Positions 50,957-60,038 of a stretch of 64,000 bases of DNA are shown here, in pieces. This DNA is from Thermodesulfobacteriota bacterium (GTDB taxonomy: Bacteria; Desulfobacterota_D; UBA1144; Nemesobacterales; CSP1-2). How positions within the stretch are numbered: the stretch's first letter is position 1; each line of letters opens with the position of its first letter. The notes below the pieces were generated by a model, which was not told the origin of the DNA, searched no databases, and worked only from the letters and a program-made list of their open reading frames with translations. The stretch covers positions 132-64,131 of the forward strand of contig DATMAT010000028.1 in the NCBI GenBank assembly GCA_035559815.1, in the 5' to 3' direction. The translations under genes and the position numbers were made by a program.

Positions 50957-50992
50957 CAACAAAAAAGCGGGTTTTGACCCGCTTTTTTGTTG
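50957..50992. terminator. perfect 16-bp stem / 4-nt loop intrinsic-terminator-like hairpin abutting rimP
   Basis: The sequence is CAACAAAAAAGCGGGT-tttg-ACCCGCTTTTTTGTTG. It has a GC core with A6/T6 tracts, so it carries a U-tract on both strands. Confidence 0.65.
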
Positions 50993-51989: not shown

Positions 51990-54845
51990 TCACAACGAGA
52001 GTACCCTCTGCCCGCAATCATAGACGGTGATCGGGCCATCCTGCGAGACAGTTATAGCCAAGCATTCCGCCTCGGCACTCATCTTAGCCGCACTGCTGTG
52101 GCGCGAGCCTTTACCAATGCCTATTTCTGCCTGGGTATCGGCCCTAGGTCTCAGCAAAACCATACAGCCCCTGAATCTGCCTTGGTGTATGTCTATTATG
52201 GTCGCCCCATCCTGCTTGGCAAAATTTATCAGCTCGCGGTCAGATAACCTCTCCATATCGGCATTAACGATCGTAGCATAAGTGCTGATCTCCGGCGGGT
52301 CGGAACGCTCCAGTATGACATTAGCATCACCCAGAAGAAAAATAGCTCCTAGATTCTCCTCGGACATCCTGAAGGCGCATCGAAACACCCGGCGCATCAA
52401 CGTCAGGTCGTATCGTTTCTGCTCGGCTAATCGAACAACTGCCTCGTCAATCAGTGTTATGCTCTCAGAAGACCAGTTGCCGTTCGAATAGCGGCCTACG
52501 AGCTGTCCGTCCGCAAATACCCGAACCTGGCGTCCCCCAACGGGTACGAAAAAGACCACGGCATCACATTGTTTGGATATTGCCGCATGATGACGAAATT
52601 GGGGACCCAATAGGAAGGTATCCGGTTCATCGAGTTTTATTTCTAGTTTGTGTATACGCCTAAGGTATCCGTGCTTATCCACTCCATAACCAAGCACAAG
52701 CCCGTCAACCATCTTTGATAGGGAGATAACAACCTGGCGCATGCGTCTAATGTGGTCGTAGCGCTGCAGTTGAATCTCGCTCTCGGGGAGGATGCGAGCA
52801 ATATGCACAGGGTCGCCTACAACCAGGGCGGTGGAGAGGGGCTTTTCCTCGCTCTGCATCTGAGCGATGGCGGCGGCGGTCTCACAAATATGTACCATTG
52901 ATGGAGCATCAATCTGTTTAGACATGGCCAGGTCGAAGAGAAATTCGATACCGGCATCTTTCATCCAGGCATCGAGTATGTCCTGCTTCTCCAATAGCTC
53001 ACGCAGTTGTTCCGGGTGGAGCTGAACCTGGGTGACTGCCTTCTCTTCCATCCGAATAGTCATCGGATACATGGCATTTATATATGCGGCATATTGCTCG
53101 GCTTTCAAGTTCCGGTTGACTTGGTTGGAATCTCCCAGCTCACCAATACCTTCTATAAGCGGCTGGTCAACCAGGGTATAGGCTTCTATTTTCTCCCAGA
53201 TATTTAACTGGGCATTAACCTCGGCCACCGCTTTATCCAATAACATCTTAATCTTAGGATGAGAGGCGTTTGCCGTAAGCATCTCATCTTCCCCATTTTC
53301 GCGTAAGTGCGCCGCCACTGCTTTAAGATTGGGCACGATCAAAGCTGAGATATAGGGCCTACCCTCGCCAAAGACAAGGGCCTGTGAAATAAATGGATTA
53401 GCCATAAGAGCGTTCTCGATTTTGGTAGGAATTACCTTACTACCCGCGGATAGAACGATCAGCGACTGCTTATGACCGATGATGTAAAGATAGCCATCCT
53501 GGTCGAAACGTCCAAGGTCTCCGGTGTGCAGCCAACCGTCCGGGTCGATTACCTGTTTTATTCCATCGGGGTCATTCCAGTATTTACGCGACACAGTTTC
53601 ACCGCGAACTAGAACTTCTCCGTCATCGGCAATACGGACCTGAAATCCTGGACCGACCTGGCCGCAGGAACCCGGACGTCTAGCGTTAGGACGGCTGACT
53701 GCCGGAAAACCGCCGGCCTCGAAGGTCCCGTAAATATTAAGTGGCAAGAGCCCTAAGGCCTCCGCAAAATCAAAGAGTTCATGAGAAAGAGGGGCACCCG
53801 CAGAATAGATGCGGCGAAGTCGTCCACCCATCATGGCCCTAATAGGATTAAAAAACGTCATGTCCGCCCTAGTGTAGCGCTCTCTCAACTCTTCCGAGGC
53901 GGCAAGACCCTTAGCCCGGTATTCTTTGCCGGTAGCCAAAGCCCATTGAAAAACCTTTCTTCTAGATTCCGGTAGCTGGTTTACTTGAGCCATCACTCCA
54001 CTATGTATAAATTCAAACCCGGAGGGTATGGTCATGATAACCGTTGGGCTTGTCTCCTGCATGTTCTCGAATACCCTCTCCATACTCTCGGCTAGAACGT
54101 TAGGCACCCCAGATAAAAAATAATGAAGGGTGGCAACCAGACTGGGAACAAAGCCCCAGCTTACCAGTGTAAAGGCTAAATCGTTCTCATCCAAAACAAA
54201 CCATTCGGCGATATACCTCGCCCCGAGTATGGTCTGCTCATGGTCAAAAACTACCCCCTTGATTTTGCCCGTTTCTTTGACTACATAGATAATGGAAGCA
54301 AGTGCGCTCGGCTCGATGCTCTCGGCGGTAGTCCTTATTGTCAGCTCTTGCTCATAATCCACCGCCTCGGAGAGAGCCTCCTCTATCGTAAATACGGAAA
54401 CAACATTCGTCGCCGGTTTCTCCTGCCCCTTTAAAAAAAGCAGGGTGCTTAAACGAGGAAATTCCTCGGTCGATTCCTTGATTATACGGCTTTGCTCCCT
54501 GCCCTGAAAAAATGCTAGCGAAGTGCCCGAGTGTTGCAATGCAAAGCGAAGTATTTCTGCCGGTAAGAGAGGATTAAGTGGTACCACAACCATGCCGGAC
54601 AATAAAGAAGCTACATAGCCTAACATCCACTCAGGGGAGTTTTCCAAAATGATAGCCACCCGGTCGCCTTTGTCTAAACCCTGTCTTCTAAAAAATTGAG
54701 CCAGACGAAAAGTAAGCTTTTGAAACTCGCCATAAGTTATGTCCCGATAACGACCATCTCTTTTGACCTTAAAGCAGGTTCTACCTGCGTATTTATCCAT
54801 TGCTAATAGCAAGGCTTGGCTAATGTTCTTCACCTTCTCTTTCAT
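51990..54845 (-). CDS. fusion protein: acyl-CoA-synthetase-like (AMP-binding) domain with a degenerate P-loop, plus a degenerate DAC-like domain, plus a DAC domain
   Basis: 951 aa. aa 1-595 are long-chain acyl-CoA-ligase-like (YGTFE, WLHTGDLG, GHKQSLIVLSAGSKVIPTKIE). aa about 640-790 read VDGLVLG...LGPQFRHHAAISKQCDAVVFFVPVGGRQVRVFADG. aa about 810-951 read LGAIFLLGD, QDGATIID, GKGSRHSSAA, AITVSQDGPITVY. Confidence 0.85.
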   Translation of the reverse strand: MKEKVKNISQALLLAMDKYAGRTCFKVKRDGRYRDITYGEFQKLTFRLAQFFRRQGLDKGDRVAIILENSPEWMLGYVASLLSGMVVVPLNPLLPAEILRFALQHSGTSLAFFQGREQSRIIKESTEEFPRLSTLLFLKGQEKPATNVVSVFTIEEALSEAVDYEQELTIRTTAESIEPSALASIIYVVKETGKIKGVVFDHEQTILGARYIAEWFVLDENDLAFTLVSWGFVPSLVATLHYFLSGVPNVLAESMERVFENMQETSPTVIMTIPSGFEFIHSGVMAQVNQLPESRRKVFQWALATGKEYRAKGLAASEELRERYTRADMTFFNPIRAMMGGRLRRIYSAGAPLSHELFDFAEALGLLPLNIYGTFEAGGFPAVSRPNARRPGSCGQVGPGFQVRIADDGEVLVRGETVSRKYWNDPDGIKQVIDPDGWLHTGDLGRFDQDGYLYIIGHKQSLIVLSAGSKVIPTKIENALMANPFISQALVFGEGRPYISALIVPNLKAVAAHLRENGEDEMLTANASHPKIKMLLDKAVAEVNAQLNIWEKIEAYTLVDQPLIEGIGELGDSNQVNRNLKAEQYAAYINAMYPMTIRMEEKAVTQVQLHPEQLRELLEKQDILDAWMKDAGIEFLFDLAMSKQIDAPSMVHICETAAAIAQMQSEEKPLSTALVVGDPVHIARILPESEIQLQRYDHIRRMRQVVISLSKMVDGLVLGYGVDKHGYLRRIHKLEIKLDEPDTFLLGPQFRHHAAISKQCDAVVFFVPVGGRQVRVFADGQLVGRYSNGNWSSESITLIDEAVVRLAEQKRYDLTLMRRVFRCAFRMSEENLGAIFLLGDANVILERSDPPEISTYATIVNADMERLSDRELINFAKQDGATIIDIHQGRFRGCMVLLRPRADTQAEIGIGKGSRHSSAAKMSAEAECLAITVSQDGPITVYDCGQRVLSL

Positions 54846-54877: not shown

Positions 54878-57800
54878 TTAGTGAGTACTAAGCATCTCAC
54901 CTAAATCCATATCGTCTACCGAGATAATCGCTTTCTCGATTACACTTTCCAGTTCGCGAACATTGCCGGGCCAGTCGTAGGCCAGAAGGGTATCCATGAT
55001 ACCCTGTGGAAGCATCCCCACATTCTTTCCAATCCTAGCTCCATGCTTGTTGATAAAATGCTTTACTAAGAGGGGAATATCTTCCTTACGATCGCGAAGA
55101 GGAGGGATTTTGATCTGAAATGCCTTTAGCTCGTTGTATAACTCCTCACTGAAGAGCCCAGACTTCAAGGCTTGTTCCAGGTCGTGGCTCGTGGCGGTAA
55201 TCAGTCGAATGTCGACTTTCACTGTATTTGAACCGCCCAGACGCTTGAATTCACCCTCCTGGAGCACCCTGAGCAATTTAGACTGTATTTCAAGCGGCAA
55301 GCCGTAAATCTCGTCGAGGAAAACCGTACCCTCGTTTGCCAACTCAAAACGCCCGATGGAGAGAGAAAGTGCACCGCTAAAACCCCCTTTTTCCTCACGA
55401 CCAAATAGCTCGCCCTCTATTTGATTTTTCGGGAATTCTGAACAATTAATCTTGACAAACGGGTTATGACTTCGGGGGCTCAGTTTATGGATAGAGCGGG
55501 CAATAAGCTCTTTGCCCGTACCCTTCTCGCCTTCGATCAATAAGGCTGAATCGGTAGTGGACACATGCTCCACTTTTAGCAGCACCTTCATAAGAAGTGG
55601 GCTCCGGCCTATAATCTCCTCGAAGCTGTGTTCGGCCTTTGCATCCCCATGGAAAAACAGATTATCAGCCTGAAGACGTCTTTTAAGCGACTCCACCTCG
55701 GAAAGAGCTTCTTGAAGCGCTCCTCGCTGGCGGGTGTTCCCGAGGGCTACGGTGATTTGTTCTCGCACGATTTCCAGCAGTTTTAACTCATCCTCATCAA
55801 AGGCATTTCTTTCAAAAGAATTCACATTTATCACTCCTATGGTTTTGCCTTCAAATTGAATAGGCATAGACAAGTAACTCTTTATCCCGAACTCCCTGCC
55901 CGCTGGCCCTATGACCGTGTCTTCGTCCACATCAGCGCAATACCTTGGTTGCTCATCCATGATCACCTTCCAGGCATAACCTTTTGGGTAAGGGATTCTG
56001 CCCACGCGCTCCAAATACCACTCCGAGTACCCTTTTTGCGCTTTCAAGACCGCTTCTTCTCCTTCCACGAAGTAAATAGCCACACTGTCCGCTCGGTCTA
56101 TATTCTCCATTATTGCTTGAACAGCATTATCGATAACATCCTGAAGATTTGTAGACTGATGGATGGAACGAATAACCGTGCTTATTATGGTCTCATATCT
56201 GTTTTTCTTGGAAAGTTGCGCCAGGCTCTCTTTAAGGGCTTCTTCGGATTTTTTTAGCGCCTCGGCCTGCTTTGCGTTATTTATTGCGGACTCTATTTGC
56301 TGTGCTACGATTTCAAGGAGTTTTAACTCTTCTTCGTCAAAAGTATTCTTTTCAAATGAGTTTATGTTTATAACCCCGACAGTCGTGCCAGCGAAATGGA
56401 TAGGCATGGAAAGATAGCTCTTTGTTCCGAGCTTTATACCGGCAGGTCCAAGAATTTTATCCTTTTCCGCATCGGGAGAATAGGTGGGCTTGCCTTCGAT
56501 GATTGTCTTCCATGTAGCTCCTTTTGGATATGGAATTCTGCTTACCTCTCTGGTAAACCAGTCAGGAAACCCCCTGAATGCCTTAATAACCGCCTCGTCC
56601 CCTTCCACAAGCCATATTCCCACATTTTCTGCGCCACCTATATTCTTGCTCATGACGTCTACAGCGTTTTCTAAGACGTCCTCCAAGTTAAGCGATTGAT
56701 GCACGCTTCTTGTTACCGTACTGATAATCGACTCGTATCGGCTCTTCTTAGATAACTGGGCCAGGCTTTCTTTAAGTGCATCCTCGGCAGTTTTTCGCTC
56801 CCAGGCCTCTATAGCCAAGGAGATAAAATCGGCCATCGAACCGGCAAAATGCTGTTCTTCTAAACTCCACTGCCTGGCCGGTCCGACGTTTTCATGGCAG
56901 ATGAGCCCAACCATACGGCCTTCAACCCTTATCGGAGCGTCCAAGAGAGAGGTAATACCAAATGGGGTCAAGTAAGAAGAGGAAAACTCTCTCGTCCTCG
57001 GGTCAGTATGGGCATCATGTGCGGCTATGATGCGCTCTTCCTCCAAGGCCTTGAAGTAGCGGGGATAGTCGGCGGCAGAAAGCTCATATCCTTTTGAATG
57101 TACTCTACCGCTCAATTCATATTGCTCTACGCATTTAACCCTTGACCGGGTATCATCATATAACCATATATTTACCCGTTCGACATCGAGCGTGCGTGCG
57201 GCTGCTTCCGCAATTTCTCTTAAAGCCGCATCTAGATTGCCTTGCTCTAAAATCCTGCTGCTGGCCAATTCTAGGAGAACTTCATTCTGTCTTTTGAGTC
57301 TTTTTTCGCGATCCTCAAGTTCCCTCTCTATGCATTTACGATCGGTAACATCGCGGAAGCTCCATACCCGACCCACTATTGTTTCTCCGACCCGCTGTGG
57401 CTGGGAATAGCGCTCGAATATTCTCCCGTCCTTAAATTCCAGTACGTCATAGCTTTCTTTATCCGGCTGCTCGTATAGTTCCTCTACCCTTTTGACAAAA
57501 GCATCGGGGTTTTTTAGCTGGTCTAGGACGAACTCAAGAGCCCTAGCATCATCCCTTGACTCCATAATCGAAGCGGGAATACTCCACATGTCTACGAACT
57601 TCTGATTATAGGTAACTATCTTGCCCGCTCTATCCACTACCAGGATCCCATCGGCGGTTGATTCCAGGGTGGCACGAAGAAGGGATAGAGAATTTTCCAG
57701 CTCCCCTTTAGTCTCTACGGACTCATCGTTGCGACCTTTAGCTTCTTTAGTCCGTACGGATGTAGCAGATTGACCCTTTCTGGTCTTCTTAGTTTTTGTT

Positions 57801-57970
57801 ACTTTCACCGCAAAAGGTAAAAATAGGGAATTTAATTTTATTAATACTATATCACGTCGTCTAGATTTTAAAAACTCGGTAGGAGGATAAGCCATAACCC
57901 TATCAAGCTTGTAGCAATGTGTACGCACAGTCATAAAAAGAGAGGCAACCCAATCGAAATTCTCCCTCAC
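54878..57970 (-). CDS. sigma-54-dependent activator: PAS, three GAF domains, AAA+; no C-terminal HTH
   Basis: The PAS region reads LLRATLESTADGILVVD...FRDVTDRK. Three GAF-like modules follow. The AAA+ domain has Walker A GEKGTGKE, ELFGREEKGGFSGA, Walker B VFLDEI and sensor II GNVRELE. The protein ends about 25 aa after GNVRELE. The N-terminal start is uncertain (GTG at 57970, or downstream ATGs at 57934 or 57895). Confidence 0.85.
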   Translation of the reverse strand: MRENFDWVASLFMTVRTHCYKLDRVMAYPPTEFLKSRRRDIVLIKLNSLFLPFAVKVTKTKKTRKGQSATSVRTKEAKGRNDESVETKGELENSLSLLRATLESTADGILVVDRAGKIVTYNQKFVDMWSIPASIMESRDDARALEFVLDQLKNPDAFVKRVEELYEQPDKESYDVLEFKDGRIFERYSQPQRVGETIVGRVWSFRDVTDRKCIERELEDREKRLKRQNEVLLELASSRILEQGNLDAALREIAEAAARTLDVERVNIWLYDDTRSRVKCVEQYELSGRVHSKGYELSAADYPRYFKALEEERIIAAHDAHTDPRTREFSSSYLTPFGITSLLDAPIRVEGRMVGLICHENVGPARQWSLEEQHFAGSMADFISLAIEAWERKTAEDALKESLAQLSKKSRYESIISTVTRSVHQSLNLEDVLENAVDVMSKNIGGAENVGIWLVEGDEAVIKAFRGFPDWFTREVSRIPYPKGATWKTIIEGKPTYSPDAEKDKILGPAGIKLGTKSYLSMPIHFAGTTVGVININSFEKNTFDEEELKLLEIVAQQIESAINNAKQAEALKKSEEALKESLAQLSKKNRYETIISTVIRSIHQSTNLQDVIDNAVQAIMENIDRADSVAIYFVEGEEAVLKAQKGYSEWYLERVGRIPYPKGYAWKVIMDEQPRYCADVDEDTVIGPAGREFGIKSYLSMPIQFEGKTIGVINVNSFERNAFDEDELKLLEIVREQITVALGNTRQRGALQEALSEVESLKRRLQADNLFFHGDAKAEHSFEEIIGRSPLLMKVLLKVEHVSTTDSALLIEGEKGTGKELIARSIHKLSPRSHNPFVKINCSEFPKNQIEGELFGREEKGGFSGALSLSIGRFELANEGTVFLDEIYGLPLEIQSKLLRVLQEGEFKRLGGSNTVKVDIRLITATSHDLEQALKSGLFSEELYNELKAFQIKIPPLRDRKEDIPLLVKHFINKHGARIGKNVGMLPQGIMDTLLAYDWPGNVRELESVIEKAIISVDDMDLGEMLSTH

Positions 57971-58765: not shown

Positions 58766-59203
58766 GTGATGAATAAATTTTTCCAGACCGAGGATGATCT
58801 AAGTGTGTTAATAGCTAGGCTCTTTTTGGGCGTGGTTATTCTGCCGCATGGCTTGCAGAAGTTGCTTGGTATGTTCGGCGGATTCGGGTTTTCCGCAACT
58901 GTGGATTTCTTTGTGAATAGCGGTGTACCAGCAGCCATTGCATTTCTGATAATTATTGGCGAGTCCTTCGGAGCCGTCGGCTTGATAATCGGCTTTCTCA
59001 GCCGTCTGGCCGCTTTGGGAATTACGCTGATTATGCTCGGCGCAATCTTTTTGGTTCATTTACCCAATGGGTTTTTTATGAATTGGTCGGGCAACCAACC
59101 GGGAGAGGGATTTGAATACCATCTACTGGCAATTGGACTTGCTCTTGTAGTTCTGATTAAGGGTGGGGGCAAATGGTCGGTGGATAGGGCCATCAGCAGC
59201 TAG
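58766..59203 (+). CDS. DoxX-family membrane protein
   Basis: It has four TM helices and the family-typical LIARLFLGVVILPHGLQKL. An AGGAGG SD is present. The start is the GTG at 58766 or the ATG at 58769. Confidence 0.8.
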   Translation: MMNKFFQTEDDLSVLIARLFLGVVILPHGLQKLLGMFGGFGFSATVDFFVNSGVPAAIAFLIIIGESFGAVGLIIGFLSRLAALGITLIMLGAIFLVHLPNGFFMNWSGNQPGEGFEYHLLAIGLALVVLIKGGGKWSVDRAISS

Positions 59204-59295
59204 ATTATTAATCTCAGATCAAGCTATGTATGAGTAAATAAGATTATTCGAATAAATCTAAAATCGATTATAAAAAACTAAATGGGAGGTTTATC

Positions 59296-59646
59296 ATGAG
59301 CTTAAGAGAGCAGGTAGAAGACCTAAACTCCATGATACTCAAAGGGCAAATACTGGAAGCGTTCGAGAAATACTATGCCGACAATGTGGTCATGCAGGAG
59401 AATGACCAGCCACCCACGGTCGGCAAGGATGCTAACCGAGAGCGGGAAAAACAGTTTCTGGCAAACTTGACCGAATTCAGGGGTGCAGAGGTAAAGGCAG
59501 TGGCAGTCGGGGACGACGTAACCATGGTAGAGTGGTTTTTCGATTACACCCATAAAGAATGGGGGAAGAAAACGTATCATCAAGTGGCCGTGCAAAAGTG
59601 GAAAGATGGAAAGATAATCCACGAGAAATTCTATTACGGAGGCTGA
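59296..59646 (+). CDS. SnoaL-like / NTF2-fold small protein
   Basis: 116 aa. The pattern FEKYYADNVVMQEN...REREKQFL...WKDGKIIHEKFYY is typical of SnoaL-like cyclase-fold proteins. A GGGAGG SD is present. Confidence 0.65.
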   Translation: MSLREQVEDLNSMILKGQILEAFEKYYADNVVMQENDQPPTVGKDANREREKQFLANLTEFRGAEVKAVAVGDDVTMVEWFFDYTHKEWGKKTYHQVAVQKWKDGKIIHEKFYYGG

Positions 59647-59656
59647 TATTAAACCC

Positions 59657-59684
59657 GTAGAGACGCAGTTAATCGCGTCTCTAC
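59657..59684. terminator. GTAGAGACGC-N8-GCGTCTCTAC hairpin (REP-like) after the SnoaL-like gene
   Basis: It has a 10-bp perfect stem and starts 11 nt after the stop codon. It has the same GTAG...CTAC architecture as the 34643-34670 palindrome. Confidence 0.55.
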
Positions 59685-59777
59685 TCGCCATAATCGTTTT
59701 TCTATTGAATATGACCATTCGCTCTTTTAAAATAACCTTATCTAACTTCACAAACAGGGCTAGAAAAAGGGAAACAA

Positions 59778-60038
59778 ATGGGATGCTGTTTTAAAGCCAT
59801 AGGTGACGAAACAAGGAGGGAAATCCTGACAATATTGGGGAAAGGTAGTGCCACCGCGGGAGAAATAGCCAGCCGGTTTAAAATCTCTCAACCCACCGTA
59901 TCCAACCATCTTAAAATCCTGAAAGAAGCAGGTCTCATAACCGAACGAAAAGTGGCTCAAACTAGGATCTATTCTCTGGATAGAAACAAACTACAACACG
60001 TAATAGATTCTTTAGAAGAGATTGTTAAAAAAAAATAG
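59778..60038 (+). CDS. ArsR/SmtB-family transcriptional regulator
   Basis: 86 aa. The sequence reads FKAIGDETRREILTIL...ATAGEIASRFKISQPTVSNHLKILKEAGLI. Confidence 0.85.
   Translation: MGCCFKAIGDETRREILTILGKGSATAGEIASRFKISQPTVSNHLKILKEAGLITERKVAQTRIYSLDRNKLQHVIDSLEEIVKKK

Follow-up and report, generated by a model that had tools for sequence, protein, structure and literature searches.

A gene encoding 951 residues was analyzed in a 64,000-nucleotide stretch of a Thermodesulfobacteriota genome (assembly GCA_035559815.1, contig DATMAT010000028.1, positions 132 to 64,131; hereafter the window). Its product joins a degenerate acyl-CoA-ligase-like (ANL) domain to two tandem diadenylate cyclase (DAC) domains, of which the first has lost residues of the metal site and the second has kept its motifs. 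On balance, the protein is likely to be a sensor-gated diadenylate cyclase, with the degenerate ANL domain as input, the middle domain as a pseudo-DAC, and the C-terminal domain as a live DAC making cyclic di-AMP (c-di-AMP). An earlier note on this DNA had described the same fusion and proposed a ligand sensor acting on a built-in DAC pair; this sensor-plus-pseudo-dimer logic is plausible.

Domain architecture of the fusion protein

The open reading frame (ORF) begins with ATG, and a plausible ribosome-binding site, AAGAGGG, lies 8 nt 5' of the start. Three Pfam matches were obtained: AMP-binding (PF00501) at aa 17–423 (E = 2.3e-49, 168.6 bits), AMP-binding_C_3 (PF23562) at aa 461–593, and DAC (PF02457) at aa 825–945 (E = 5.6e-15, 55.4 bits against a cut-off of 27). 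This was the outcome expected in the earlier note, with PF00501 N-terminal and PF02457 C-terminal; PF02457 scored above threshold once. The motifs and nucleotide coordinates quoted there were all correct, and each was found in the ORF: the eroded P-loop IIYVVKETGKIKGV, YGTFE at aa 372–376, WLHTGDLG from aa 438, GHKQSLIVLSAGSKVIPTKIE at aa 457–477, DGL of the weaker DAC copy at aa 714–716, DGA at aa 879–881, and RHS at aa 915–917 (Table 1). The full-length AlphaFold2 model had a predicted local distance difference test score (pLDDT) of 86.2 and a predicted template modeling score (pTM) of 0.83. The model of aa 604–951 had a pLDDT of 84.7 and a pTM of 0.81. The gene product would be a cytoplasmic one-component signaling enzyme in three parts.

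Distribution and conservation of the family

A search of 5.8 billion proteins returned at least 120 clusters with 54–97% identity at full coverage, all carrying PF00501, PF23562, and PF02457. The three-part architecture is therefore real, given the Pfam domains and the full-length homologues that share them. Named clusters were called "AMP-binding protein" or "long-chain acyl-CoA synthetase", and precomputed Pfam annotation already showed the architecture. When one genome of each species was scanned, the ANL-pseudoDAC-DAC arrangement was found at 77 loci in five or more phyla, covering Anaerolineae/Caldilineaceae (Chloroflexota), Thermodesulfobacteriota, Dadabacteria, Acidobacteriota/Thermoanaerobaculia, and Spirochaetia. 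One locus was carried by the closed 5.35-Mb chromosome CP070811.1. Several genomes had two or three paralogues, sometimes adjacent. At three loci (L011:131-6023, L036:5986-11851, and L037:27-3756), two full-length paralogues lay head to tail with an overlap of about 50 nt; such pairs may be heteromeric partners.

The earlier note had considered an assembly chimera, marked by a break near nt 52900–53100. Such a chimera, or a read-through artefact joining a ligase gene to a DAC gene, has a negligible probability and was ruled out by the homologue set: the at least 120 full-length clusters come from independent assemblies, and the 77 species-representative loci include the closed chromosome. Base composition was smooth over the domain junctions, with no break at the suspected positions, and AlphaFold2 yielded one coherent protein.

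Motifs were compared in 190 sequences, comprising a 121-member set and 69 genome-derived members. Among the latter, mean pairwise identity was 0.68 for the pseudo-DAC, 0.64 for the DAC, and 0.44 for both ANL subdomains.

Tandem diadenylate cyclase domains

In the C-terminal DAC, D879-G880-A881 was present in all 69 genome-derived members, and R915-H916 was invariant. The third residue of the second motif was Ser family-wide, where the canonical motif is RHR. S934-Q935-D936 lay at the CdaA Ser-Glu-Glu site, with Asp for Glu, as mapped by alignment and inspection. The longer motifs QDGAT, G[AS]RHSSA, and SQDG were invariant in 68 of the 69 members, and the exception was frameshifted. The S.DG pattern was conserved in the wider pseudoDAC-DAC module clade. 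One Chloroflexia metagenome-assembled genome (L056:6001-9012) had a frameshifted or disrupted DAC, reading GRPHRRL and GADR against GARHSSA and SQDG, with the rest in a separate 92-aa ORF; the probable cause is either pseudogene formation or an error in sequencing.

The middle segment (aa 620–800) alone scored 12.5 bits against PF02457, below the threshold of 27 (E = 0.11), with an alignment spanning profile positions 11–118 of 119. The 2025 copy of Pfam held no model for this domain. Relatives of aa 600–951 were collected from a representative library of 1.8 billion proteins (255 matches at E ≤ 1e-3), and both DAC-like domains were delimited by family hidden Markov models (HMMs) before profile–profile comparison. 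When 59 middle domains were compared in hhalign with the corresponding 59 C-terminal DACs, the probability was 98.5% (E = 4e-15, 140 colinear columns), well beyond chance; with narrow, family-only alignments of the two domains, E was 0.0024. The two HMMs also cross-matched each other's domain in several proteins (P0163; many loci).

Fold comparison gave the same picture. The order of secondary-structure elements was identical in the two halves of the aa 604–951 model. The best 50 PDB matches of this two-domain model in Foldseek were all DAC domains of DisA, CdaA, and DacM (probability 1.0), and the template modeling score against CdaA was about 0.6–0.67. By sequence search, the C-terminal module had no match in the PDB, whether the query was a single sequence or a narrow profile; only the fold comparison worked. 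By profile and fold, the middle domain (aa 611–795) is a diverged DAC duplicate. The weaker second copy described in the earlier note was thus a true one, though below the Pfam threshold.

At the DGA and RH positions, the middle domain had V-D-G and F-R-x-H, and the family had DG[LMVI...] instead of DGA. Its V-P-V-G-G aligned with V-S-Q-D-G of the live domain. Since the Ser and the acidic metal ligand are lost, the middle domain is, by its motifs, a catalytically dead pseudo-DAC. The hhalign, Foldseek, and family alignment results agreed that the C-terminal tandem consists of one degenerate and one motif-intact DAC. A PK_C-like identity of the middle domain, as in DacZ_N, was rejected: NCBIfam DacZ aligned with the DAC half only, hhalign identified a DAC duplicate, and no pyruvate kinase was present among the best 50 Foldseek matches.

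The retained VDG and FR.H remnants bear on whether the two domains could form an asymmetric synthase. In that case, the pseudo-DAC would face the DAC within one chain, and, with a single catalytic center, the product would be a linear or non-canonical dinucleotide (e.g., pppApA) or ATP joined to a ligand held by the pseudo-DAC. The pseudo-DAC is as conserved as the live domain, and the two are confidently modeled as a unit with no flexible linker between them (pTM 0.81). However, known stable CdaA DAC–DAC contacts are non-catalytic, and the proposal is purely inferred. It was considered quite improbable.

Degenerate ligase-like domain

The ANL fold was clear. In Foldseek, the model matched luciferase, 4-coumarate-CoA ligase, and FadD13 at E of about 1e-34. 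The top NCBIfam match was the long-chain ligase FadD11, aligned end to end over aa 29–594, with 221.8 bits against a cut-off of 950.

The catalytic motifs were degenerate. The AMP-binding P-loop signature, written as a PROSITE-style pattern, was matched by none of the 190 members (0/121 and 0/69). The family consensus at this site was Y-T-A-G-E-T-G-R-P-R-G, with E, K, or D within the loop, and few of the constrained positions of the signature were satisfied by the window protein. The A8 Arg position held Arg, His, or Tyr across the family. The hinge Asp was absent from all members of the 121-member set, its position being occupied by Ser, His, Pro, Ala, or Asn. The A10 Lys occurred in 20 of the 69 genome-derived members. 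The window protein was among the most eroded members, with VVKETGKIKG, YGTFE, His458 at A8, and Gln575 at A10. The degeneration noticed earlier in this one protein is therefore family-wide.

Other residues were retained. The A5 Glu (E376) and the A7 Asp (D443, ribose) were conserved in the family. The window protein kept Tyr372, Glu376, Gly378-Gly379, and Asp443, with Phe in place of the A5 Thr. In ANL structures, the equivalents of these retained residues touch adenine, ribose, and Mg. Because these contact residues are kept while the P-loop, A8, and A10 are degenerate, the residue pattern indicates that the ANL domain is under selection, but not for standard two-step ligase chemistry.

The small ANL subdomain swings by about 140 degrees between states in real ANL enzymes. 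In the AlphaFold2 model, it was nearer to the thioester-type state, with a root-mean-square deviation of 4–6 Å to 4G37, 4RLF, and 5BSR and of about 10 Å to adenylate-state structures; this is a feature of the model and not evidence.

A bifunctional enzyme was considered, whose ANL domain would still work as a ligase, though its P-loop is unusual. The fusion would then couple acyl activation to the production of c-di-AMP, or let the two activities share or channel ATP/AMP. The model shows an intact ANL fold with high confidence, and the A5 (Y-x-x-T-E) and A7 ([HR][TS]GD) motifs are largely conserved. Many members keep T..TG.P[KR]G in the P-loop, and about 30% have the A10 Lys within a TPSMKISR stretch that looks canonical. 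However, the canonical P-loop is missing throughout the 190 sequences, an acidic residue is common within the loop, and the hinge Asp was never seen in the 121-member set. The ANL part also evolves much faster than the DAC module, and four catalytic motifs are hit together in the window protein. In addition, a close relative has PAS-GAF in place of the whole ANL domain, and acyl-metabolism genes were lacking among the neighbors of the family. A bifunctional enzyme is thus unlikely.

Reuse of the pseudoDAC-DAC module

The pseudoDAC-DAC module was also found on its own, making up a protein of about 350 aa. It further occurred behind zf-HC2+Lon_C, PRTase-CE with or without TPR, a CBS pair, an ArsR-type HTH, CHAT, and PAS-GAF-PAS. 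Identity among module relatives with other N-termini went down to about 25–35%. Since the module follows varied sensor domains, the ligase-like domain occupies the input position.

A closer case was P0123 (787 aa; L070:3363-5720, L071:384-2747), whose module was 80% identical to that of the window protein. Residues 23–359 of P0123 were 64% identical, over 346 aa, to the PAS-GAF1 part of the window's sigma54 activator, whose gene directly precedes the fusion gene; the AAA+ and ANL parts were missing. Judged from this alignment, P0123 looks like the product of a deletion between two adjacent genes. Its PAS-GAF stands in the place of the ANL domain, and the ANL domain is therefore replaceable by classical sensor domains. 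As far as gene order and homology indicate, the sensor of the upstream activator and the DAC module are linked by both adjacency and fusion.

Of the sensor reading in the earlier note, the positional part stood: the ANL-like domain occupies the position of interchangeable sensor domains in related proteins. Its recruitment as a non-catalytic sensor is probable. The proposed coupling to lipid or acyl metabolism was not supported, because no recurrent fatty-acid or acyl-CoA metabolism genes were found among 57 upstream and 64 downstream neighbors.

The position of the module also bears on a receptor role, in which the two DAC-like domains would do no more than bind ATP or c-di-AMP and so control either the ANL domain or a partner. 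One DAC copy is clearly non-catalytic, the copy that looks live has Asp for Glu and no second Arg in its RHR motif, and the genome has a separate, ordinary DAC. Nevertheless, DGA, RH, and Ser-x-Asp are invariant from phylum to phylum, which fits catalysis better than mere binding. Conservation is highest in the module, which lies C-terminal to varied sensors in every case, the pattern of an output enzyme, and RH followed by a non-Arg residue is typical of small DACs annotated as cyclases. A pure receptor is accordingly an improbable account of the protein.

Among the distant modules, those of P0177, P0178, P0253, P0130, and P0160 lay behind PRTase-CE, CHAT, or zf-HC2+Lon_C, in architectures typical of conflict or defense systems. 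In PADLOC, the PRTase-CE of distant relatives matched retron type III-A PRTase models, and CHAT matched the SAVED_CHAT model. The fusion protein itself had no PADLOC match and was rejected as a known defense system; matches were limited to the N-terminal domains of proteins distantly related through the module.

Proposed mechanism

In DisA and CdaA, c-di-AMP is synthesized from one ATP at each DAC site, with two sites face to face and reciprocal 3'-OH attacks. The stable CdaA DAC–DAC dimer is non-productive. In the proposed sensor-gated cyclase, the ANL pseudoenzyme, devoid of P-loop, A8 Arg, hinge Asp, and A10 Lys, would bind a ligand as the input domain. Candidate ligands are an adenine nucleotide or an acyl compound, and the putative adenine- and ribose-binding elements Tyr372, Gly378-Gly379, and Asp443 remain. 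The pseudo-DAC would pack rigidly against the live DAC and fill the partner place in the stable, non-catalytic DAC–DAC contact. The live DAC is predicted to convert ATP to c-di-AMP. Because synthesis needs two facing ATP-loaded sites, it would have to pair with the live DAC of a second chain. Ligand binding, through the swing of the small ANL subdomain, may permit or block this productive encounter.

A more specific proposal is offered tentatively. In it, the ANL pseudoenzyme would sense a small molecule, and subdomain rotation would gate the pseudoDAC-DAC pair as a widely reused signaling cassette, undefined until now and also joined to PAS-GAF, CBS, CHAT, Lon_C, and PRTase domains. The product might be c-di-AMP or a non-canonical adenine dinucleotide from an asymmetric site pair.

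Several observations weigh against a sensor-gated cyclase. The ANL domain is under purifying selection, and its A5 and A7 motifs are partly kept, as is A10 in some members; residual adenylation chemistry is possible in some ANL-DAC members. The live domain has RHS instead of the canonical RHR and Ser-Gln-Asp instead of the CdaA-type Ser-Glu-Glu. An ordinary small DAC is already encoded next door, so a second cyclase is not required. The gene neighborhoods vary and offer no hint of a ligand. Regarding the RHR motif, the large family of small DACs that carry a diadenylate cyclase annotation also has a non-Arg third residue (G[SA]RH[MLVI]AA), and this position is variable in the wider module clade. 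The missing second Arg is thus shared with small annotated cyclases and need not indicate inactivity specific to this protein.

Comparison with known systems

It is known that DACs can carry a variety of sensor domains at the N-terminus. The list of DAC partner domains in the earlier note was outdated: DACs were sorted into 22 families by a 2023 review, as stated in PMC12901056. The closest named family to the live DAC was DacZ (NCBIfam E = 3.4e-9, model positions 120–264). DacZ/CdaZ cyclases, with an N-terminal PK_C-like domain and a C-terminal DAC, are active in Haloferax volcanii and Methanocaldococcus jannaschii (PMC6741144). DacZ resembles the fusion protein in being soluble and in having a regulatory domain ahead of a C-terminal DAC. 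However, the fusion protein scored 36.4 bits against a cut-off of 430, over the DAC half only. Ahead of its DAC, it has a degenerate DAC duplicate rather than a PK_C-like domain, with a 600-aa ANL part before that.

CdaA and DisA share the fold of the DAC in the fusion protein, which has kept DGA, Arg-His, and the phosphate/metal-site Ser. The fusion protein differs in having no transmembrane helices, DisA linker, or HhH, and in its RHS and Ser-Gln-Asp motifs. It also has a built-in dead partner domain, whereas CdaA and DisA form homo-oligomers of identical domains. Small single-domain DACs of Thermodesulfobacteriota and Anaerolineae occur in the same phyla and have the same RH[non-Arg] variant, but they have one domain of about 200 aa with no sensor and form a separate, much larger family. 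FadD11/FAA1 acyl-CoA synthetases share the two-subdomain fold and the FACS-like DGWLHTGD motif; unlike them, the fusion protein has a degenerate P-loop, A8, and A10, is joined to a DAC module, and scores 222 bits against 950.

An analogy is found in c-di-GMP enzymes, where degenerate GGDEF domains serve as allosteric sites beside a live enzyme domain. As with the pseudo-DAC, a related catalytic fold has lost its residues and is strongly conserved beside an active domain. The fold and the messenger are different, and the fusion protein has two DAC-type domains in tandem.

In the full-text literature covered, which did not include key DAC-architecture reviews, no paper was found that links diadenylate cyclases or c-di-AMP with acyl-CoA-synthetase or AMP-binding domains. 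The bare ANL-DAC architecture may already be catalogued in DAC reviews. No ANL-DAC member appears to have been characterized.

For c-di-AMP, an essential second messenger, the main open question is how its synthesis is controlled. To our knowledge, the input signal is not known for nearly all diadenylate cyclases, and c-di-AMP signaling is essentially unstudied in the uncultured Chloroflexota, Thermodesulfobacteriota, Acidobacteriota, and Dadabacteria in which the family mostly occurs. An ANL input has a well-understood ligand pocket and a large conformational switch, which makes the signal experimentally approachable. The pseudoDAC-DAC cassette is common to many architectures, some with defense-type N-termini. 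The tractable input domain and the reusable cassette give the protein moderate-to-high interest for c-di-AMP specialists.

Gene neighborhood

The features of the fusion gene and its two neighbors are listed in Table 1.

Table 1. Positions of the fusion gene, its parts, and the adjacent genes in the window.
Feature	Position (nt)	Strand	Basis
Whole gene, ANL-like / putative pseudo-DAC / DAC fusion	51990..54845	-	Stop codon 51990-51992; ORF list, Pfam, homologues, AlphaFold2
ANL large N-terminal subdomain, aa 17-423, degenerate	53577..54797	-	PF00501, Foldseek, motif erosion
Eroded A3 P-loop IIYVVKETGKIKGV, aa 185-198	54252..54293	-	Sequence; signature matched by 0/190 family members
ANL small C-terminal subdomain (AMP-binding_C_3), aa 461-593	53067..53465	-	PF23562, E = 1.9e-13
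A10 position, Gln575	53121-53123	-	Alignment column; Lys in 20/69 members
Linker from ANL part to DAC module, aa 596-610	53016..53060	-	pLDDT <50 at aa 596-602, about 60 in surrounding blocks
Putative pseudo-DAC, aa 611-795	52461..53015	-	DGL 52698-52706; FRHH 52587-52598; VPVGG at Ser-x-Asp/Glu metal site
Motif-intact DAC, aa 796-951	51993..52460	-	DGA 52203-52211; GSRHSSA, RHS 52095-52103; SQD 52038-52046
Upstream gene, PAS-3xGAF-sigma54 AAA+ activator	54878..57970	-	Pfam; 32-nt gap to fusion gene
Convergent neighbor, single-domain DAC, 201 aa	51316..51921	+	PF02457, E = 3e-20; NCBIfam DacZ C-terminal half, E = 4e-41

The sigma54 activator gene and the fusion gene are probably co-transcribed. 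In 10 of 57 loci, including those of relatives, the gene immediately upstream encoded the same kind of activator. In the window, no HTH/HTH_8 DNA-binding domain was detected by Pfam in the activator, which ends about 10 aa past the AAA lid. It carries GGFSGA, a variant of the GAFTGA loop.

Other upstream neighbors (n = 57) included Ser/Thr kinases (7), Toast_rack_N proteins (6), RR-PP2C proteins (3), and histidine kinases (3). Downstream (n = 64), MalT-like/AAA_16 regulators with adenylate-cyclase domains (8), Ser/Thr kinases (4), Usp proteins (4), and DHH-family proteins (2) were found. Signaling proteins were thus numerous on both sides. The DHH family includes c-di-AMP phosphodiesterases. 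At locus L003, a CitMHS transporter with a TrkA_C (RCK_C) domain was encoded 5 kb upstream.

The 201-aa DAC gene is separated from the fusion gene by 68 nt. Its family is very large and tightly conserved, with more than 7800 matches at E ≤ 1e-10 and 65–80% identity in Thermodesulfobacteriota and Anaerolineae, and has the motif G[SA]RH[MLVI]AA rather than RHR. From these features, the 201-aa protein is probably the ordinary housekeeping diadenylate cyclase of the organism, and it may belong to the "DacC" class named in PMC6741144. A conserved pairing of the two genes was rejected: no such DAC lay beside the fusion gene in the 86%- and 79%-identity relatives or in any of the 77 loci. Because the adjacency is not conserved, the small DAC is probably outside the system of the fusion gene.

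No c-di-AMP riboswitch or other RNA family reached the gathering threshold within the window. Near the operon, no match to the sigma54 promoter consensus exceeded chance, and scans for sigma70 promoters and terminators were not above shuffles. At the start of rimP, upstream of the 201-aa DAC gene, a perfect palindromic hairpin with a 16-bp stem was found (50957–50992); flanked by A and T runs, it resembles a bidirectional terminator. On the other side of the activator, a trio of DoxX, SnoaL-like, and ArsR-type HTH genes (58766–60038) was syntenic upstream of the activator/fusion pair at loci L001 and L005.

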